From positions 1 through 64,000 of the IMG/VR virus record IMGVR_UViG_3300045454_000060: a stretch of 64,000 nt of DNA; one strand, 5' to 3'. This stretch comes from a virus. Of the stretch, positions 746 to 47,194 are shown piece by piece. Under the pieces are notes generated by a model that ran no database searches, was not told the DNA's origin, and saw only the letters and a program-made list of their open reading frames with translations. Numbering within the stretch: the stretch's first letter is position 1; each line of letters opens with the position of its first letter. The position numbers were made by a program, and so were the translations under genes.

Positions 746-1589
746 GCTTATAGGGGTCACGCCGCGGTGCGCCATGGATCGCCATGGATCGCCACAAATC
801 GGCGAAATGGTTCGGCGCGGGCGGTTTTTAGGTTCGGCTGGCTTGAAATCCGGTGGCAAAGGACCGACCGTGGCGAGCCTCGGCGGGGTCGGGCCGCGGT
901 CAGGTTCGGCGACAATCCGCATTAGGAACCTAGGATTTTCCGCGTGCCTCCAGCGTCTACCACTTCTGGTAGCTTCATATGCTCGAATGCAACTAGGGGT
1001 TGAAACCCGCCGCGCGGCACGATTGCAATCCCTAGTTGCACGCGCATAGCGCGCAAGCATTGTGCAGCGCAGCATACACGCATTGCGTGTAACGCGGAAA
1101 GTTTCGCTACTCACTATTTCGTGATCTATGCTGCATCGCAGCATGCTAGACGATTGCGCTTGCGTTCCGACAAACGATAGCGTTGCGTGTGCGCAATCGT
1201 GCCGTTGCCGCGCTTGTTTCCTGCTAGCTGGTAGCATGCTGGCATCTCGGCATGTCGAGTCGTGATGCGTGATCCCTGCCGCGCGAGCGTGCGCGGCATG
1301 TGTTCCTGCCATCGTCCCTACCATCATGCCTGCCGCGTGCCGGCATGGCAGGGAACATCAACGCTAGTGCCGAAAATCTCGCGCTGGAACGCGATTGCCG
1401 CGCTGGCAGCTACCTACCTAGCGCAAACACGAAACCCCACTGTAGCGCGTTCCCAGGGGCTTCTAAGGGGTCCTTCACGAAATCGTGAGCAACGCTCATT
1501 GCTGACGAATCCCTATTGCCATTAACGCGGCAGGCATGATGTTGTCCCATGCATCGCGATGTTGCGATGCATGCCAAAGGGAAACGACG

Positions 1590-2198
1590 ATGACAGTCAA
1601 GATGAAGCATGACGCTACTCCCGACATGATCGAGGGGGCACGCGCGAATCTGATTCTGGCAATCGAGACGCGCGAGGCATTCGAGCGTTCCCTGATCACG
1701 GAAGCGAATGACAACGCTTCGATGATGAAGTTCCTCTCGCGCTACAAGCGCGAGGCATCGAAGCTTGACGCTTTCAGTCTCGCGTATGCTGCCGCGACGA
1801 ATTTCGATTTCGTCGCGCATTTCAACAGCACGCGCTATGAGGGGGCGCGCTTCAACATCTACGCTGCCCCGAAGCTTCACTTCCTGATGCGCGTGCTGAA
1901 CGGGGCAAACTGGCAGTCCCTGACTGACAGTGACTCGGCAACGCTTGCCGGCACGCTTGCCGCGCTGGAATCGGGGCACACGGAAGGCAAGCGCATTGCC
2001 AACGCGCTTGACGATTTCATGAACAGCATCGCGGGGCGCAGGGATTACAAGAGCGGGGGCACGCAAAGCGGCAGTAGCTTGCGCGCGCTTGAGGCACTCG
2101 GAATCGTGCGCAAGGCAAGCGCGCGCGCATGGGAAATTGCCGACAAGACGGCATTCAAGACGCTGGCACGCGCTGCCAGCAAGGCAACGCGCGAGTAG
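1590..2198 (+). CDS. Hypothetical protein inside the motif-depleted island; possible C-terminal winged-helix-like region
   Basis: 202-aa ORF with AAGGG RBS; C-terminus GTQSGSSLRALEALGIV; hairpin follows. Confidence 0.75.
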   Translation: MTVKMKHDATPDMIEGARANLILAIETREAFERSLITEANDNASMMKFLSRYKREASKLDAFSLAYAAATNFDFVAHFNSTRYEGARFNIYAAPKLHFLMRVLNGANWQSLTDSDSATLAGTLAALESGHTEGKRIANALDDFMNSIAGRRDYKSGGTQSGSSLRALEALGIVRKASARAWEIADKTAFKTLARAASKATRE

Positions 2199-2230
2199 CG
2201 GCAGGGGCGGGGCAGGGGCAATCCCTGCCC

Positions 2231-2246
2231 CGTTTCACGTGAAACG
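2231..2246. promoter_or_regulatory. Chromosomal-type parS palindrome
   Basis: CGTTTCACGTGAAACG matches the core of the bacterial parS consensus TGTTNCACGTGAAACA. Confidence 0.7.
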
Positions 2247-2273
2247 TCATCACTGACAGAAGGAACGCTTCCG

Positions 2274-2483
2274 ATGCTCAACCCCGAAACCCCGTATGCC
2301 GACATGCTGCGGCACGCGCAACGCTGGCAGGCAAGCATGCGCGCTGCCGTGTGCCGCAGCATGCATCGCGATTACATGACGCTCGCGCGCGTCTATCTCG
2401 CACAAGCGAACATGCGTTCCGCACACAACGCGCTGAATCGTGCCGCGTGTGCGCGCATGCTGTATTGCTACTTTAAGAGCTAG
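2274..2483 (+). CDS. Small hypothetical protein
   Basis: 69-aa ORF with AAGGAA RBS. Confidence 0.55.
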   Translation: MLNPETPYADMLRHAQRWQASMRAAVCRSMHRDYMTLARVYLAQANMRSAHNALNRAACARMLYCYFKS

Positions 2484-2597
2484 CAAGCGGCATGCCAAAT
2501 GGGGCGGAAACGATTCCGTCCCTCCCGCGCTCAAATCGAAGTCTTAACGATTTTTTCGGGGTCAGACCCGGATCCCGCCACATCCTCGCACTGCCAC

Positions 2598-6178: not shown

Positions 6179-7687
6179 CTAGGGGTGCTTCCATGACGTG
6201 TAGTCAAAGTCGCCTCCTTCCGGCAGGATGTTTTCGGCAAACCCAGGGGTCTGGAGCAGGATGGCGCGGCGCGTCAACGCATGCTCCTGCAGCGTGCGAT
6301 TGCCGGCATCGGCGAAATCCAGCACATGGCACAGATTGGGGCCGGTTTTCTTGGCCCTGAGGCCGCGCCCGATACGCTGGCGATGCGCCACCTCGGCCTT
6401 GCCGCCGCCAGCAAGCACGACCAGGCCGACCGCCGGCACATCCACCCCGACATCGAGAATGGTCGATCCGATCAGCGCCTGCAGCTCGCCCGAGGCAAGC
6501 GCACGCAGGGCGCGCTGACGCTCGTCGTTCTGGTGCTCGCCGAAGATGAAGGCCGTCTTGACCCCCGCATCCCTGAGCGCCCCGAGCAGGATTTCGCCGT
6601 GCTTGCGACGATTGATCAGAATGAGCGACGGCAGACCATAGGCGGCGGCGCGCCCCACCTCGAACACGATCACGCGATTGCGTTCCGGGTTCTCGACAAT
6701 GCCCAGGTCATAACAGGCGGGCCAGCGAGTTGAGCGCCGCAACCCTGGCGGGGCGGGCGCGTCGGCGATCTTGAAACGCGGCCGGGCCAGAATGCCGCGC
6801 TCGATCAGAAGCTGCTCCGAGACGTCGATGCCGATCGGCCCGAAACCCGCCATCAAACGCATATTCGCCTCGGCATCGGGGCGCATGAACGGGGTGGCGG
6901 TGAGCGCCAGACGGTAATGCGCGTTCAGGCAGTGCTGCAGGATCTCGAAATACTCGCCCCCGCCCGCCTCGTGCGCCTCCTCGCCGATCACGACCTCGAA
7001 GTAGCGCAGCAGCGCCAGCGTTCGCATGCGATCGGGGTGATTCTCCACCAGACGCGCGGCGAAGGTCTGCACCATGCCGATATTCACGCCGCGCCGCGGA
7101 TCCCACACCCCGTCGCCGATGAAGCCAGGGGTGAAGCCGGCGGCACGGAACCCCTCGGCCATCTGATGCGCAAGCACCGTGCGGGTGGTGAGGAACAGCG
7201 TCGGCCGGCGGATCGTGCCGACCGCCTGAACGGCGATGTTGGACTTGCCTCCTCCGGTCGCCACGCGCGCGATCATCCGCCCGTGCCGCAACAGCCTCCT
7301 GACCGTCTCAGACTGGTAATCATACCTGGGATCGAAGCCGAACCCCAGATAGTCCACGCTGCCGAGCACCGGGCCCAGGGGCTCAGGCGGAGGCTTCACC
7401 ACCACCCGCACGGAATGGCCGAGTCGGACCAATTCGCGCTCCACCACCGGCACAAACCCGGCCGGGAAGGTGCCGGTGCGGAAGTCGAAGAACGAGCTGC
7501 GCCCGTCCCAGCGGCGCGCCTTGAACGCCTCCGAGCGCTCATAGCCCTCGACCTGGTAGGAAAGCAGCTCGGAAACCGCGAGCTTCACCTCGCGCGAAGC
7601 GTCGAGCAGGCGCGCCGCGACCGCGTTGGCGGCCAGGCGCAGCGTCTCGCCGGTCGGCAGGGCTTGAGTGAGCGATGTCGGTTGCAC
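6179..7687 (-). CDS. SF2 (DEAH-like) helicase
   Basis: ATGGGKS Walker A, EEAH, TATP and QRIGRGLR motifs. Confidence 0.9.
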   Translation of the reverse strand: MQPTSLTQALPTGETLRLAANAVAARLLDASREVKLAVSELLSYQVEGYERSEAFKARRWDGRSSFFDFRTGTFPAGFVPVVERELVRLGHSVRVVVKPPPEPLGPVLGSVDYLGFGFDPRYDYQSETVRRLLRHGRMIARVATGGGKSNIAVQAVGTIRRPTLFLTTRTVLAHQMAEGFRAAGFTPGFIGDGVWDPRRGVNIGMVQTFAARLVENHPDRMRTLALLRYFEVVIGEEAHEAGGGEYFEILQHCLNAHYRLALTATPFMRPDAEANMRLMAGFGPIGIDVSEQLLIERGILARPRFKIADAPAPPGLRRSTRWPACYDLGIVENPERNRVIVFEVGRAAAYGLPSLILINRRKHGEILLGALRDAGVKTAFIFGEHQNDERQRALRALASGELQALIGSTILDVGVDVPAVGLVVLAGGGKAEVAHRQRIGRGLRAKKTGPNLCHVLDFADAGNRTLQEHALTRRAILLQTPGFAENILPEGGDFDYTSWKHP

Positions 7688-7737
7688 GGAATCTCCCCCG
7701 AGACTATAGTAAATCACCACTGATTGAACAACAACAG

Positions 7738-8424
7738 ATGACGATCACATCTCCGAACCCTCTCGCGGTCACGCTGCGCGACCCGCACACCCTCGTGCCG
7801 GCGCCGTGGAATCCCAATCGCGCCACCCCCGAAGACGAGCGGAAGCTGGACGAGAGCATCCGCCGCTTCGGCATGTTCAAGCCGGTGATCTGCCGCGAAC
7901 TGCCGACCGGCGCGCTGCAGATCCTGGGCGGGCACTACCGCGTGCAGGCAGCGCTGCGCCTCGGCATCAGCGAGGTGCCGGTGATCAATCTCGGCACGGT
8001 CGATGACCGTCGCGCCAAAGAGATCACCCTGATCGACAACGGCCGCTATGGCCGGGACGACACCATGGCACTGGCGGGGCTGCTGGAGGAACTCGGCAGT
8101 CCAACCGAGCTCGCCCTGTTCATGCCCTACGACCTGGTCGAGATCGACGCGATCTGCGCCGCCAGCAAGATCGACCTGGAGACGCTCGGGCTTGTCGAGG
8201 AGCCCGAGGAGAAGGCGATCGAGGACAAGCCCGCCCGGGCGCCCAAGACCCACGAAATCCTGCGTCTGAAGGTCGCGCTGGAGGATGCCGAACGGGTGCG
8301 CCGCACCCTCGAGACGATCATGCAGGCGCAGGGCTTCACCGACAGCGACGCGCTCACCAATGCCGGCGACGCGCTGGTCTGGCTGATCAATGACTGGCTC
8401 GAGCAGACAAAAGGCGAGGGGTGA
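7738..8424 (+). CDS. ParB/Srx-domain protein 1
   Basis: PWNPN...LDESIRRFGMFKPVI...ILGGHYRVQAA. Confidence 0.85.
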   Translation: MTITSPNPLAVTLRDPHTLVPAPWNPNRATPEDERKLDESIRRFGMFKPVICRELPTGALQILGGHYRVQAALRLGISEVPVINLGTVDDRRAKEITLIDNGRYGRDDTMALAGLLEELGSPTELALFMPYDLVEIDAICAASKIDLETLGLVEEPEEKAIEDKPARAPKTHEILRLKVALEDAERVRRTLETIMQAQGFTDSDALTNAGDALVWLINDWLEQTKGEG

Positions 8425-8639
8425 TGCGTCTCAAGTTCGAGGATTGCCGCGACTGCCGCCACCGCAGACGGCCAGCGATCTGCCGCGACTGCGACTATGG
8501 CGAGCTGTTCGAGGACCGCGAACGCATGACCGTGGACGAGCTGTTCAAGCAGACCACCGCGCGCTTCGGAGACTCAGTCATCCATGACGATGACACCCAG
8601 GACGACGATCTGCCGCAGGACGAGAACGACGATGAGTGA
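8421..8639 (+). CDS. Small Cys-rich (CxxC...CxxC) protein with an acidic tail
   Basis: CRDC...CRDC; overlaps both ParB-like genes. Confidence 0.7.
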   Translation: MMRLKFEDCRDCRHRRRPAICRDCDYGELFEDRERMTVDELFKQTTARFGDSVIHDDDTQDDDLPQDENDDE

Positions 8640-9303
8640 ACCCAACATCCGGCTGATGCCGCTCGAGTGGCTGCAGCCCTACGCCAAGAACGCCAAGCTG
8701 CACCCGCCGGAGGAGATCAAGCGTCTCGCCGCGACCATCAAGCGCTTCGGCTGGGATCAGCCGATCGTCGCCGAAGCCGACGGGACCATCATCAAGGGCC
8801 ACGGCCGTCGCCTGGCCGCGATCGAGCTCGGGCTCGACACGGTGCCGGTGTGGATTCGCAGCGATCTCAGCAGGGCCGAGGCCGATGCCGCGCGCATCGC
8901 CGACAACGCCGCCTTCGGCATGCGCTACGACACCGCGCTGATGCAGGAGGAGCTGCGCCGGCTGATGGCGGAGGCGCCGGAGATCTCGCTCGACGACCTG
9001 GCGCTTACCGACAAGGATCGCACCCTGCTCACCGAGCAGCTCGATCGCGCCGACGCCGACGCCATCCTCGACGAGATGGACAGCGAGATCGAGCGGCAGA
9101 AGAAGGAGGATGCCGAACGGGTCGAGAACGCGGATGCCGAGATGGTGCCGCTCGCCAAGGCGTTCGGCTTCGGCAAGATCCGCAAATCCGACGAGCGCGT
9201 GCTGATGAGCTTCATGGCCGAGGCCGAGGCGGCAACCGGCAAGGAAGGCTACGAGGCCTTCATCGGCGGGCTGAAGCTCGCCGCCGAGCGAGGGTTCGCG
9301 TGA
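8632..9303 (+). CDS. ParB/Srx-domain protein 2
   Basis: PYAKNAKLH...FGWDQPIV...IIKGHGRRLAA...RIADN. Confidence 0.88.
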   Translation: MSEPNIRLMPLEWLQPYAKNAKLHPPEEIKRLAATIKRFGWDQPIVAEADGTIIKGHGRRLAAIELGLDTVPVWIRSDLSRAEADAARIADNAAFGMRYDTALMQEELRRLMAEAPEISLDDLALTDKDRTLLTEQLDRADADAILDEMDSEIERQKKEDAERVENADAEMVPLAKAFGFGKIRKSDERVLMSFMAEAEAATGKEGYEAFIGGLKLAAERGFA

Positions 9304-9938
9304 TCTACACCATCACCAGGGGCTTCGAGACCCGCACCGAGCGCTCCGAGCGCGTGCTCGAAATCGCCGAAACCTTCGGCCTCGGGCTGAGCGACCGCCG
9401 GTTCTGGGTATTCCGCGACCTGAAGGTCGAGATCAGACAGGGCGAGGTGGTCTACATCACCGGCCAGTCCGGCAGCGGCAAGTCGCTGCTGCTGCGCGAA
9501 CTCTCGGCGCAGATGAGCGCCTCGGGGCTGCGCGTGACGAACATCGACCAGGTGGAGCTCGAGGATCGCGCCCTGATCGACCAGGTGGGCCGCTCGATGA
9601 GCGAGGCGATCGAGCTTCTGAGTCGCGCCGGCATCAACGACGCCTACCTGGCCATCCGCAAGCCGGCCGAGCTGTCCGACGGGCAGCGCTATCGACTGCG
9701 CCTGGCGAAGCTGATGCAGACCGAGGCGGATGTCTGGGTCGCCGACGAGTTCGGCGCCGTGCTCGATCGCGTCACCGCCAAGGCGGTGGCCTTCAACGCC
9801 CAGAAGCTCGCCCGCGCCCGCAAGGTGACGCTGCTGGTCGCCACCACCCACACCGATCTCGAAGAGGAGCTTGGACCCGATCTGCTGATCACCAAGCGCT
9901 TCCAGAACAGGGTTGAACTTGTCCGGAAGGATCAGTAA
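9300..9938 (+). CDS. Soluble ABC-family ATPase (no permease partner)
   Basis: GQSGSGKS, LSDGQ signature, VADE Walker B and TTH motifs. Confidence 0.88.
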   Translation: MIYTITRGFETRTERSERVLEIAETFGLGLSDRRFWVFRDLKVEIRQGEVVYITGQSGSGKSLLLRELSAQMSASGLRVTNIDQVELEDRALIDQVGRSMSEAIELLSRAGINDAYLAIRKPAELSDGQRYRLRLAKLMQTEADVWVADEFGAVLDRVTAKAVAFNAQKLARARKVTLLVATTHTDLEEELGPDLLITKRFQNRVELVRKDQ

Positions 9939-9941
9939 GCG

Positions 9942-10184
9942 ATGACGATCAAGCAGAGACTGCGCCGCTATCTCAAGGAAATCGGACGCGGCGGCTCGCG
10001 CCTGCTGAACGCGATGTTCGGCGGGCCCGGGGACGTGACCTTCTCGGCCTGGAGCTGGGAGCTGGTGCTGCGCGGCAGCGCCTGGGGACGCTGGCGCGTC
10101 CGGGTGCTGGACGCGATCAGCGGCGAGAACCACTGCTACGACGCCTGGATCTGGCACCGCACGCGGGGGCTGATCGTCCGATGA
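9942..10184 (+). CDS. Hypothetical protein
   Basis: 80-aa ORF in the operon. Confidence 0.6.
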   Translation: MTIKQRLRRYLKEIGRGGSRLLNAMFGGPGDVTFSAWSWELVLRGSAWGRWRVRVLDAISGENHCYDAWIWHRTRGLIVR

Positions 10185-10645
10185 ACCCGCAGGTCGTGAT
10201 CATGGACATCGACGGCACGCTCGCCAATGCCGATCATCGCCTGCACCACATCCGGGGCATGACCTCGGAGGAGGCGGAGCAGAAGGCGGAGGGCTGGCGC
10301 GCCTTCCTCGCCGCCGCCGAGCATGACTCGGTAAACGACGAGATCCGCTTCCTCAACAACGTGCTGCACGAGCACGCCCTGGTGTTCATCGTCACCGGGC
10401 GCAACGAGAACGATCGTGCGATGACGCTCGCCTGGCTGGCGCAGCACGGCATCCTCTACGACCGCATCTACATGCGCCGCGCCGACGATCGCCGCCCGGA
10501 CACCGAGGTGAAGCGCGAGGTGCTGGAACAGATCCGCGCCGAGGGGTTCAAGGTGCAGTTCGCGGTCGAGGACCGCGCTTCGGTGACCGCCATGTGGCGC
10601 GCCGAGGGGCTGCGCTGCCTGCAGGTCTGCGACGGCAAGTATTGA
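10181..10645 (+). CDS. HAD-family phosphatase (PNKP 3'-phosphatase-like)
   Basis: DIDGTLA, VTGR, MR..DD.RPD..VK and EDR motifs. Confidence 0.85.
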   Translation: MNPQVVIMDIDGTLANADHRLHHIRGMTSEEAEQKAEGWRAFLAAAEHDSVNDEIRFLNNVLHEHALVFIVTGRNENDRAMTLAWLAQHGILYDRIYMRRADDRRPDTEVKREVLEQIRAEGFKVQFAVEDRASVTAMWRAEGLRCLQVCDGKY

Positions 10646-10920
10646 TGAGCTGGGCCGACACCCTGCTGGTGTTCGCCAGCTCCTACGCGCTGGTGTTCCT
10701 GCTGGTGATCCAGCAGCGCACGATCCAGGCCTCGCGTTACCTGATGGCGTTCCTGTTCTCGAGCCTGATCGGCGTGGTCAACACGCTGATCGTGCGCGGC
10801 GCGGTCGGCGACGACCTGACCTGGTTCCTGATCGCGCACTGCCTGGGCGGCTCGTCCGGGGTGGTGTGCGCGATCTGGCTCTATGACACCGTGCTCGGCC
10901 ACAAGGACAAGAGCGCATGA
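10645..10920 (+). CDS. Small membrane protein
   Basis: Three hydrophobic segments; TGATG coupling with the upstream gene. Confidence 0.6.
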   Translation: MSWADTLLVFASSYALVFLLVIQQRTIQASRYLMAFLFSSLIGVVNTLIVRGAVGDDLTWFLIAHCLGGSSGVVCAIWLYDTVLGHKDKSA

Positions 10921-12062
10921 ATTGGCAATGGCCAGCACCAGTCAGTCCGGAATTGGCACAGCGTCAATTCGAGGCGCTGAAGCGATCCGATGGCACCATG
11001 GACGATGACCTGAGCGCGATCTTCAGCGGCTCAGACTGCGCCATCCGGCGTGTTCCCAAACCACGTGCGCGCTTCCCGCTGCTCGAGGAGATGTGGGTCG
11101 AGCGCGGCGATCGAGCGGATTGGGACCTGCTGCACGGGCTTCACTACAAGATGCAGTCCACGCCGGTCGGGGCGAAATACTGGCGCGTGCGCTTCCGCGG
11201 CGAGACCATCGGTGTCTGCGTGTTCGGCATGTCGCGCCCGCTCTTGAAGGAGCGCCACGCGATCTTCCCGCGCCTGACCCCGGGGCAGGACACGCAGCTC
11301 ACCAACATCCACCGCTACCGCTACATCAACGACAACTTCCGGGTGATCGGGCGGCTGGTGGTGGACACGATGTTCCGCTCCGCCGGCGTGGCCTACCGCT
11401 TCGCCAACCTGGCCTCGCGCATGACCGGCTTCACCTACATCGAGATCCAGTCCTCGATGTCGAAATACAACCTGTTTGCCCAGCGTGCCGGCTTCACCTT
11501 TGTTCGGCCGATCCGCTCGCCCAACTACGACAAGGGGCTGCGCTTCATGCGCCGCTTCTTCGCGGCGCATCCTGGCGATCAGGAAGCACTGATGGAGGAG
11601 TTCGCGCGTTTCCCGCCCGCCATGCAGAAGAAGGTCGAGCGGGAGCTGAAGGCCTTCTACTACGACCATTCGCCGCTGGAGAAGACCGGCTCGCGGCGCT
11701 TCTACAGCGATCGGGTGGTGGACAATTGGGGGGTGCGCCGCACCATCTCGAAGATCCAGGGGCTCTGCTTCGCCAGCCCGCTCTACGGGCTCTACAAGAA
11801 CCCCGACGCGGTCGGGCGCGCCGGCGCGAGCTGGGGCGGGGATCTGCCCGCTCGTCTGCCGCTGCTCGCCTTCGACCTGCAGGCGCCCGAACAGCCCCTG
11901 GCACTGGCGCGGCTCGACAAGGTTCCGGGTTGGGGCGAGCTGCAGGCGGCTCTCGCCACGCACCCTGAATGGGGTGCGCCGACGCGGCTCCCGGAAGGTT
12001 TCCTGGAGGCGGAGGACGATGGCGAGGAGCTGCAGGATCTGCAGGAGGTAAGTCATGCGTGA
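10917..12062 (+). CDS. GNAT-fold acetyltransferase-like protein (Mom-like; candidate DNA-modifying enzyme)
   Basis: N-terminal LHY motif, RLVVDTMFRSAGVA acetyl-CoA-binding loop, and ABC ATPase/ParB neighbours. Confidence 0.7.
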   Translation: MNWQWPAPVSPELAQRQFEALKRSDGTMDDDLSAIFSGSDCAIRRVPKPRARFPLLEEMWVERGDRADWDLLHGLHYKMQSTPVGAKYWRVRFRGETIGVCVFGMSRPLLKERHAIFPRLTPGQDTQLTNIHRYRYINDNFRVIGRLVVDTMFRSAGVAYRFANLASRMTGFTYIEIQSSMSKYNLFAQRAGFTFVRPIRSPNYDKGLRFMRRFFAAHPGDQEALMEEFARFPPAMQKKVERELKAFYYDHSPLEKTGSRRFYSDRVVDNWGVRRTISKIQGLCFASPLYGLYKNPDAVGRAGASWGGDLPARLPLLAFDLQAPEQPLALARLDKVPGWGELQAALATHPEWGAPTRLPEGFLEAEDDGEELQDLQEVSHA

Positions 12063-12095
12063 CTATCATAGTCTGGACGGGGTTGGAGAGGCAAC

Positions 12096-12344
12096 ATGAG
12101 CCCGAAAATGAAACGGGTGCTGAAGCTGGTGGCGGCGGCACCCTCTGGGAAGGAGCTGAGCCTTGATGATCTCATCAGGGTTCTGGGAGAGGGTGCCAGC
12201 AGGCAGGCGATGCAGTCCACCATCCGCTACCTGGAAGGGAAGTATCTCCTGGAGAGGGTCTATGAGACCCGTGGTGGCAAGGTTCGCATGGTGCTGAGGC
12301 CTACCCCGAGGGGAAGTGCCATGGCTGCCGCGCTGGAGAGGTAA
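12096..12344 (+). CDS. Winged-helix DNA-binding protein
   Basis: SRQAMQSTIRYLEGKYLLER...LRPTPRG wHTH pattern. Confidence 0.7.
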   Translation: MSPKMKRVLKLVAAAPSGKELSLDDLIRVLGEGASRQAMQSTIRYLEGKYLLERVYETRGGKVRMVLRPTPRGSAMAAALER

Positions 12345-12485
12345 TTCCTGGGGGAGATTCAATGAGTTAGAGAGCATGGTTTGCGATTCTTGTTGATTTT
12401 CCTGGGAGGGTGTTGAGATTCTTGAGTGTTTTCAATGGGTTGGAGAAAGATCGAAACCTTGGCTGCAACGATGTCTTCGGGCTAA

Positions 12486-12540
12486 GTTTGTAGTATTTAT
12501 GTATATATATTATATATATAATACTTATATATCTTACGTA
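12486..12540. other. Extremely AT-rich (TA)n tract upstream of the terminase genes
   Basis: GTAGTATTTATGTATATATATTATATATATAATACTTATATATC in a GC-rich genome. Confidence 0.8.
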
Positions 12541-12687
12541 GAAAGAGGGTGTTTGGCTTCAAGGGGCAGGGACGCAAAAATCTCACTTAGCGCTGAGTTA
12601 GCCCCTTGATGTGGCATTTCTGCCACAGGTATAGGTCAGTCAGCCGTGAGTGTGTTATGATGTTGCGCAGCAGCGCCAGAGAACGCA

Positions 12688-13332
12688 ATGAGTGACGCGA
12701 ACCAGGACAAGACCGAACTTGACGCGGGAGAGGGCAGGCCTGCCCGGCCCATGCGCAAGCTGTTCCCGAAGGAATGGCTCGAGATCGTCGGCATGGCCAA
12801 GTCCGGCGTGCCGGTCGAGAAGATCGCCAAGAGCTTCGGCGTCCAGCCTTCCACGATCTACAAGGGCCTGAAGCGGCGCAACATCACGATCGGCGCCTAC
12901 ACGCCCTCGGCCGCCGAGGTGCATGAGAGCGCCGAGCGGCGCGAACTGATCGCCAGGATCAAGGAGACCAAGGACAAGGACTACCGCTTCACCGAGTTCC
13001 TGCAGCGCCAGGTGGTCACTCTGATCGCCGAGCAGCAGAAGGAGAAGCGCCCCTTCGCCGCCGTGATCGACGACGTCAAGGCGCTCAAACTGGCGCTCGA
13101 CGCGGTGCGCTCCGGCACCGACAACAAGTGGAAGATCCTCGGGCTCGACAAGGAGAACGACGACGCCGACAAGGAGCTGCCGGAGCTGCCGCTGCGCGAG
13201 CTCACCGAGGACGAGATCGCCGCGATTCGCGACCGCCAGATCATGGAGGATGGCGGCGAGGCGCTCGAGGCGCTCGATGGCGAGGACGAGGGCGAGATCG
13301 TCGAGGAGTCCGGCGAGCCGGACGAGGACTGA
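12688..13332 (+). CDS. Terminase small subunit (putative)
   Basis: N-terminal HTH (VEKIAKSFGVQPSTIY); directly upstream of the large terminase. Confidence 0.7.
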   Translation: MSDANQDKTELDAGEGRPARPMRKLFPKEWLEIVGMAKSGVPVEKIAKSFGVQPSTIYKGLKRRNITIGAYTPSAAEVHESAERRELIARIKETKDKDYRFTEFLQRQVVTLIAEQQKEKRPFAAVIDDVKALKLALDAVRSGTDNKWKILGLDKENDDADKELPELPLRELTEDEIAAIRDRQIMEDGGEALEALDGEDEGEIVEESGEPDED

Positions 13333-47178: not shown

Positions 47179-47194
47179 TGTTCCACGTGAAACA
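47179..47194. promoter_or_regulatory. Chromosomal-type parS site
   Basis: TGTTCCACGTGAAACA is an exact match to TGTTNCACGTGAAACA. Confidence 0.75.

Follow-up and report, generated by a model that had tools for sequence, protein, structure and literature searches.

In phage T5, target sites in the first-step segment of the genome are cleaved by EcoRI and by CRISPR-Cas, whereas a pre-early function shields those in the rest of the genome, and how the first-step segment survives the breakdown of host DNA is an open question (10.1101/866236; PMC10644984). Avoidance of restriction sites and depletion of CRISPR protospacer-adjacent motifs (PAMs) in phage genomes are, in contrast to the case described below, genome-wide, partial and statistical (PMC4246573). 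The genome considered here, that of a phage-plasmid, is IMG/VR virus record IMGVR_UViG_3300045454_000060 (102,455 bp), the first 64 kb of which (positions 1 to 64,000) constitute the analysed window. The element in question is an island at 1013-2568 that is purged, on both strands, of a five-base word centred on GG/CC, carries a gene for a predicted winged-helix protein and was, very probably, made by selection as an escape cassette.

The resemblance to T5 is by analogy: in both cases, an early segment that is short and self-contained would lack nuclease targets that the large siphovirus genome freely contains elsewhere. However, the T5 segment is ~10 kb long, lies in the terminal repeat and avoids the 6-bp palindrome of a single host enzyme, whereas the present unit spans 0.7-2.3 kb, the avoided word consists of 2-5 degenerate bases and is expected every 12 bp, and the amino acid content of the encoded proteins is reshaped. 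In searches of Pfam and PHROG (E ≤ 0.01), the island proteins had no family match at all, and hence none to nucleases or to the pre-early proteins of T5 (A1, A2, dmp). Like restriction-site and PAM avoidance, the island reflects selection against a short word that some agent recognizes on the DNA, but here the bulk of the genome is unaffected and one island is fully cleared. Mom of phage Mu, an enzyme with a GNAT fold, acts on the adenine of S-A-S-N-Y, which it modifies. The present genome, too, encodes a GNAT-fold protein near the island, and the avoided word is, likewise, a degenerate pentamer with N in the fourth place, but the partners of this protein are two ParB/Srx-domain proteins and an ABC-type ATPase, and the core of the word is GG/CC instead of A; we know of no unmodifiable island in Mu. 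The CviPII nicking enzyme and its methyltransferase, which are encoded by a chlorella virus, read CCD, the same core as in V-N-CC-D, the opposite-strand form of the word avoided here. Readers of such short words thus exist, although the virus in that case infects a eukaryotic alga, no homolog, for which no search was made, turned up here, and no word-free island is known to us in the CviPII system.

The banned word is defined here as the sum of H-GG-H-B and H-GGG-Y, which is equivalent to H-GG-N-B without HGGGG. Its main component is anything but rare: the genome (102,455 bp) contains 8384 copies of HGGHB alone, or about one per 12 bp when both strands are counted. Between 1008 and 2569, again on both strands, there is a single banned site, a minus-strand AGGAC at 1470 (1470-1474), compared to about 153 expected. 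The earlier note, made from the sequence alone, had placed the purge at about 1012 to 2564 with one exception near 1470, and had described it as extending over both strands and through coding and non-coding DNA with sharp edges; our counts bear this out down to the AGGAC, the nearest outer sites being located at 1008 on the left and 2569 on the right. In 500-bp bins, H-GG-N-B is found 5-9 times within 1001-2500 and 38-74 times in the remainder, and all but one of the leftover matches within 1001-2500 fall in runs of four or more G. The 104 G runs of the island consist of 69 GGHA, 16 GGGA, 18 runs of at least four G and the one exception, and GGCC, CACC and ACCG are absent altogether (17-22 expected). 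Elsewhere in the genome, 490 comparison windows of 1553 bp contain 153 ± 13 banned sites, with a minimum of 114.

The test against a Markov background that the earlier note had proposed gives the same picture. The composition of the island itself predicts 135 sites in mononucleotide shuffles and 99, 65 and 24 sites under Markov models of order 1, 2 and 3 (4-mer), respectively; at no order did any of 1000 simulations reach one site or fewer. Recoding of the island protein with the codon usage of the genome yields 55 ± 5 expected sites, against none observed. There is no second such island in the 102,455-bp genome, where the next-largest site-free gap is 195 bp, and no gap longer than 190 bp was detected in 19 unrelated viral loci that were matched via the right-edge 16-mer and served as negative controls. 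Neither is there any avoidance at the genome scale, given that the 8384 HGGHB sites compare to ~8100 expected from base composition. Because the purge covers both strands and runs through coding as well as non-coding DNA, it points to an agent that reads a five-base word at the DNA level. General restriction-site avoidance does not apply, since palindromes such as GCGC and CATG are common in the island.

Other words also deviate in the island. Within 1012-2564, GATC is scarce (8 vs 37 predicted by the remaining window), and several words are enriched 6- to 10-fold, namely, CTAG (12 vs 0.7), GCTA (19 vs 2.8) and TTAA (6 vs 0.3).

The island gene at 1590-2198 has a paralog in the same genome, at 98307-98981, that is 65% identical, and the comparison of the two demonstrates that the absence of the word was produced by selection. 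Over 615 aligned bases, banned words number 51 in the paralog and zero in the island copy. Relative to the paralog, sites were lost through diverse changes (20 G to C, 15 G to A and 11 G to T, plus changes of flanking bases). Because island-less genomes of the clade described below hold one ordinary family member, whereas island-bearing genomes hold the ordinary and a purged copy, the island gene is a recoded duplicate of the ordinary one.

The trait is not confined to this genome. By anchoring on the neighbouring helicase gene we obtained 80 viral loci, of which ~45 carry a strongly word-purged island 3.5-8 kb past the helicase. The position of the island is thus conserved in a large clade of phages, among them SSU5, RHEph10 and Nickie-type Pseudomonas phages. 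The record shares synteny with G001, a complete viral genome of 112 kb that contains exactly one island. The islands fall into three word classes. In the first (~28 loci, including G001, G006 and the cultured Rhizobium phage RHEph10), there is no GG or CC over 0.6-1.5 kb, and CG and GC rise in compensation; with GG and CC fully banned, the proteins encoded in these islands contain no glycine, proline or tryptophan. In the second class (~14-18 loci), GGT is the only GG word that is kept. The third class, which consists of the present genome and two other lineages, keeps GGNA and G runs of at least four, and this variant is new. These other lineages are represented by three metagenome loci (L007, L008 and L009), which encode relatives 34-39% identical to the island protein and follow the GGNA rule, with 0 banned sites against 177, 188 and 152 expected, respectively. 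Given that L008 and L009 are 99% identical, there are, together with the present genome, three independent lineages, each with 0-1 banned sites where 150-190 are expected and with 100-110 permitted G runs.

On the helicase tree the word classes are clustered, and yet at least four switches are required. In a pair of phages with 93% identical DNA (L103 and L104), one island is free of GG and the other gained ten GG, eight of which are GGT. Complete relatives that have no island are G002, G004 and Stenotrophomonas phage BUCTxx99, and SSU5 displays only a weak dip. In the literature searched, we found no description of islands of this kind or of DNA acylation in this clade; a paper on a 'nick motif' turned out to concern a different phage group. 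No near-identical DNA was found in phage and plasmid collections either.

Two side observations concern individual members of the clade. In a variable stretch by the island, the minus strand of L104 (14608-15078) encodes a protein whose Acb2/Tad1 hairpin domain (E 6.6e-10) is that of a family of sponges for defence-signalling nucleotides, and L103 has ~3.3 kb of other genes in that stretch. The GGT-class loci L073-L075 are placed among GG-free phages on the helicase tree and yet have terminase, ParB and GNAT residues in common with the main GGT clade, suggestive of a recombined block.

In the AlphaFold model (predicted local distance difference test, pLDDT, 96), the 202-amino-acid island protein begins with a helical domain, followed by a winged-helix DNA-binding domain at the C-terminus. 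The predicted domain, at residues 106-202, has the helix-turn-helix and the beta-hairpin wing, and matches the winged helices of Cdc6/Orc1, AspA, PadR, MarR and RTP (Z 8-9.2, root-mean-square deviation 2.1-3.1 over 75-91 residues), whereas no clear structural match was found for the helical N-terminal half. The protein is genuine, given the confidence of this model and a family of ~178 representatives in a library of 1.8 billion proteins. A profile of the family had no match among the sequences of solved structures, a Foldseek search with the whole protein yielded none among solved structures at E ≤ 0.001, and a scan of viral contigs with this single protein returned nothing. Iteron-type initiators (RepA, RepE, pi) contain two winged-helix domains and bind iterons. 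Repeat arrays flank the island, the island protein has a 'double winged helix' neighbour in the Atlas at a template modeling (TM) score of 0.50, and its N-terminal half has no clear match.

The candidate for the agent that we favour is encoded nearby on the plus strand, in a conserved block of genes (ParB, ParB, ABC ATPase, phosphatase, GNAT) that adjoins the large terminase throughout the clade. By domain matches, 7675-8424 and 8584-9303 encode two ParB/Srx-domain proteins. The open reading frame at 8667-9938 contains a soluble ABC-type ATPase in residues 212-420, and its N-terminal half overlaps the second ParB frame. Of its 423 amino acids, only residues 212-420 are conserved (63% identity to a 240-amino-acid protein of G001), and the first half is probably not translated, with the true start near 9300. 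A PNKP-type HAD phosphatase (10181-10645, domain match) is present in some relatives only. The candidate writer is the GNAT-fold protein at 10917-12062 (phrog_886), which probably starts at an internal site, near 10998. Its model is moderately confident (pLDDT 72) and best matches the ATP-dependent cytidine N4-acetyltransferases NAT10 and TmcA (9j3c, 2zpa and 9b0e; E 1.5e-4 to 8e-4); Mu Mom is matched as well (8bv8_B, E 1.8e-3), and many GNAT matches have a probability of 1.0. The Mom-like GNAT module that the earlier note had proposed at 7.7-12 kb is thus upheld as to the fold, with Mom among the matches, and not as to the family, given that the protein hits no Pfam family (E ≤ 0.01), that of Mom included, and no sequence of a solved structure. 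Alternative writers were sought in the genome, and no TGT/DpdA, C5 methyltransferase or N4/N6 methyltransferase was found. Between the GNAT gene and the terminase genes, the region 12000-12750 stands out by its low GC content (0.50-0.55 vs 0.65) and strong GC skew (+0.26 to +0.31), and is a candidate packaging or regulatory region.

With TmcA and NAT10, the resemblance extends beyond the GNAT fold, in that an ATPase works with the GNAT domain and a cytidine target would fit a CC-centred word. The differences are that, in these enzymes, the helicase-type ATPase is fused and the substrate is RNA, whereas here a separate gene encodes an ABC-type ATPase and the proposed substrate is DNA. Consistent with this, the GNAT part alone aligns well (TM score by query 0.26-0.29), and the fused ATPase is lacking.

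We propose that the island is a 'blank' expression cassette, made up of a recoded duplicate of a conserved early winged-helix gene and a small variable gene, in which an agent that reads a GG/CC-centred word on duplex DNA would find no target. As for the agent, it is tentatively identified with the ParB-ParB-ABC ATPase-GNAT block of the clade itself, next to the terminase, a link drawn on plausibility from the predicted structures and one that we hold to be possible although below even chances. Under this proposal, the module would acylate C, or the paired G, in H-GG-N-B on phage DNA; acylation of cytidine would suit a CC-centred word because NAT10 and TmcA target cytidine. The unmarked cassette could then be bound and transcribed on marked incoming DNA, and the ordinary paralog would take over after unmarked copies arise. 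In its most general form, the proposal is that phages of the SSU5/RHEph10/Nickie type possess a machine, unknown until now, by which duplex DNA is written on or cut at GG/CC words of 2-5 bases, with a ParB-loaded ABC ATPase and a GNAT protein as the candidate components, possibly N4-acyl-cytosine as the product, a specificity that drifts between GG, GGV and H-GG-N-B, and one blank starter cassette per phage. The cassette may have been recoded, despite the cost in glycine, proline and tryptophan, to function when all other DNA is marked. We consider this composite scenario rather doubtful as a whole.

Several observations weigh against the involvement of the module. It is present in every clade member examined, island-bearing or not, including the complete island-less genomes G002, G004 and BUCTxx99, as well as SSU5 with its weak purge. 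No alignment column of ParB1, ParB2, the ABC ATPase or GNAT tracks the word class better than columns of the terminase and helicase do, and each of the six protein trees implies the same four changes of class. In a comparison of three island-bearing with two island-less complete genomes, no gene of the genome was found to be confined to the former, only shadow frames being different. The suggestion of the earlier note that this module may modify HGGNB is not supported by these comparisons. Furthermore, zero tolerance on both strands and through coding DNA fits cutting more naturally than marking.

The last point leads to the main alternative, in which the island is nuclease-proof DNA that enters first. 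The cassette would be exposed first or alone and would lack the targets of a short-word endonuclease, be it the degrader of host DNA encoded by the phage itself, a host enzyme or the defence of a competitor, and an early product would protect the remaining genome at a later stage. Zero tolerance, both strands, sharp edges and the clearing of a whole expression unit all fit cutting, and the T5 first-step segment provides a precedent, being alone sensitive to EcoRI and CRISPR-Cas (10.1101/866236; PMC10644984). The location of the island in a variable early/anti-defence region, with the Acb2/Tad1-type gene adjacent in L104, and the array of cassettes with common intergenic blocks point in the same direction. 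The existence of near-identical phages of different word class is as expected if an outside agent varies with the host, and island-less relatives would simply be unexposed to that agent. Moreover, 10 of 46 island-bearing contigs, the present record and a 105-kb record end within 1.5 kb past the island; this signal is, however, confounded by the repeat arrays on both flanks, which could break assemblies, and a packaging start near the terminase genes would put the island ~10 kb from that end. The same caveat applies to the suggestions of the earlier note that the island may be read first after injection or may mark the start or end of packaging. No nuclease candidate emerged here, the Pfam and PHROG searches with the island proteins being negative for nuclease families as well. 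Nor is a bacterial or phage nuclease that recognizes a GG word of 2-5 bases known to us. On balance, we regard such nuclease escape as unlikely, if still to be reckoned with.

Two further explanations fit less well than nuclease escape. In the first, the winged-helix family or a partner binds or coats DNA at the banned word, and its own gene is word-free because it would otherwise silence itself, the word shifting as the protein diverges. Every island indeed carries a member of a fast-diverging DNA-binding family, the predicted fold of which resembles spreading or centromere-type winged helices (AspA) as well as Cdc6/Orc1, and repeat arrays flank the islands. However, a word that occurs every 12 bp in phage and host DNA is no operator, and the flanking arrays carry it at genome-average density only. 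Furthermore, the ordinary family member is retained by genomes without islands, and the paralog outside the island of the same genome has its 51 sites. A self-avoiding DNA binder is thus improbable. In the second, the banned words are PAMs of the hosts (CC of type I-F, NGG-type for Cas9) that were cleared where targeting works. The words are similar to PAMs in length and degeneracy and differ between lineages, and a Streptococcus thermophilus Cas9 uses NGGNG. On the other side, none of the PAMs known to us requires a non-G before GG or exempts GGGG, the hosts of the clade have many CRISPR types or none, and selection per PAM is weak in the absence of a spacer, which is hard to reconcile with zero tolerance along a stretch of 1.5 kb in dozens of lineages. 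Although T5 is CRISPR-targetable in the first-step segment only (10.1101/866236), we consider clearance of PAMs to be very improbable. The reading that invokes no function at all, in which the island reflects local composition, a mutational footprint such as that of a deaminase, or a recently acquired foreign segment, has next to no probability and is refuted already by the paralog, simulation and three-lineage data: the GC content is lower in the island than in the genome (0.59 vs 0.66), but the 4-mer model of the island still expects 24 sites, the substitutions are of every kind and without transition bias, the closest homolog of the island gene sits in the same genome, and position and trait are kept across the clade at protein identities down to 20-40%.

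Whichever agent is involved, the loss of a word expected ~150 times from a gene unit that still works calls for an agent that acts strongly at the DNA level and recognizes two to five bases, and to our knowledge, no agent of such specificity and strength has been described for bacteria or their phages. The variant present in this genome is the most informative one so far because it fixes the positions that are read, namely, a non-G before GG and a non-A three bases after the first G, and the rule provides a concrete signature to be sought in nanopore, mass-spectrometry and enzyme-assay data. Should the agent be the ParB-ABC-GNAT block, a new kind of DNA modification would be at hand; should it be a nuclease, the survival of first-entering phage DNA during the breakdown of host DNA, which is an open question for T5, would be explained. 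Word-free cassettes could also mark early genes in uncultured phages.

The anatomy of the island can be described from left to right. Outside the left edge, at 925-935 on the plus strand, there is one copy of the block GGAACCTAGGA; to the left of the L008 and L009 islands, this block is repeated 8-9 times in arrays. The left edge itself is spanned by an inverted repeat (988-1040) with 18-nt arms that are 89% complementary (-16.6 kcal/mol, z -4.3). The features that follow are, apart from the parS-like palindrome, on the plus strand. A word-free leader of 577 bp (1013-1589) precedes the winged-helix gene (1590-2198), and directly 3' of the gene, a GC-rich hairpin with an 11-bp stem (2207-2233; -16.4 kcal/mol, z -4.2) is made of permitted G4 runs. 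A word-free open reading frame of 69 amino acids (2274-2483) comes next and is not conserved in other islands of the same class: the GGNA-class islands hold different small genes where this frame sits. At the right edge (2538-2586), GAAGTCTTA, a ~25-nt spacer and GATCCCGCCACATCCT follow each other in the same order as in L007, L008 and L009; GAAGTCTTA occurs once in the genome. Just outside the island, at 2577-2725, there are four direct repeats of ~36 bp, each with CCCTTG[CG]A (2604, 2639, 2676 and 2714), and equivalent arrays are present in L007-L009. A scan for promoter and terminator consensus sequences produced nothing exceeding shuffles, and an Rfam scan gave a sub-threshold osmY match at 2212-2276 only.

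Between the hairpin and the small frame lies a 16-bp parS-like palindrome, CGTTTCACGTGAAACG (2231-2246), which agrees with the chromosomal parS consensus at 14 of 16 positions. A second copy in the window (47179-47194) agrees at 15 of 16, and perfect parS 16-mers, TGTTTCACGTGAAACA, are found inside the islands of three relatives (L047 at 13487, L048 at 13998 and L082 at 12298). To judge from its presence in only 5 of 51 island loci, the parS-like site is an optional passenger.

Some islands of relatives have further peculiarities. In L008 (6370-6790), and also in L009, the left part of the island consists of ~7 tandem AT-rich units of 60 bp built on CATATGAACA palindromes, which resemble the iterons of an origin or centromere. 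The second island gene of L008 (7947-8531) encodes a protein of 194 amino acids with two similar halves (SVPGVG.F.SLHT.AYDL ... ESQETP) that is unrelated to the 69-amino-acid frame of the window. In G001 (L006, 13061-13160), a (GCATGT)n run, with pure purine-pyrimidine alternation, is located at one edge of the island.

A part of the leader (1347-1471) is homologous to the intergenic sequences 99465-99560 and 82659-82712, and this block recurs in the intergenic modules of an array of small genes at 97.8-102.4 kb. In L009, a homolog of a gene at 101 kb directly precedes the island. Because the leader shares this block with the other end of the record, and given the gene order in L009, the two ends of the record are probably adjacent in the real genome.

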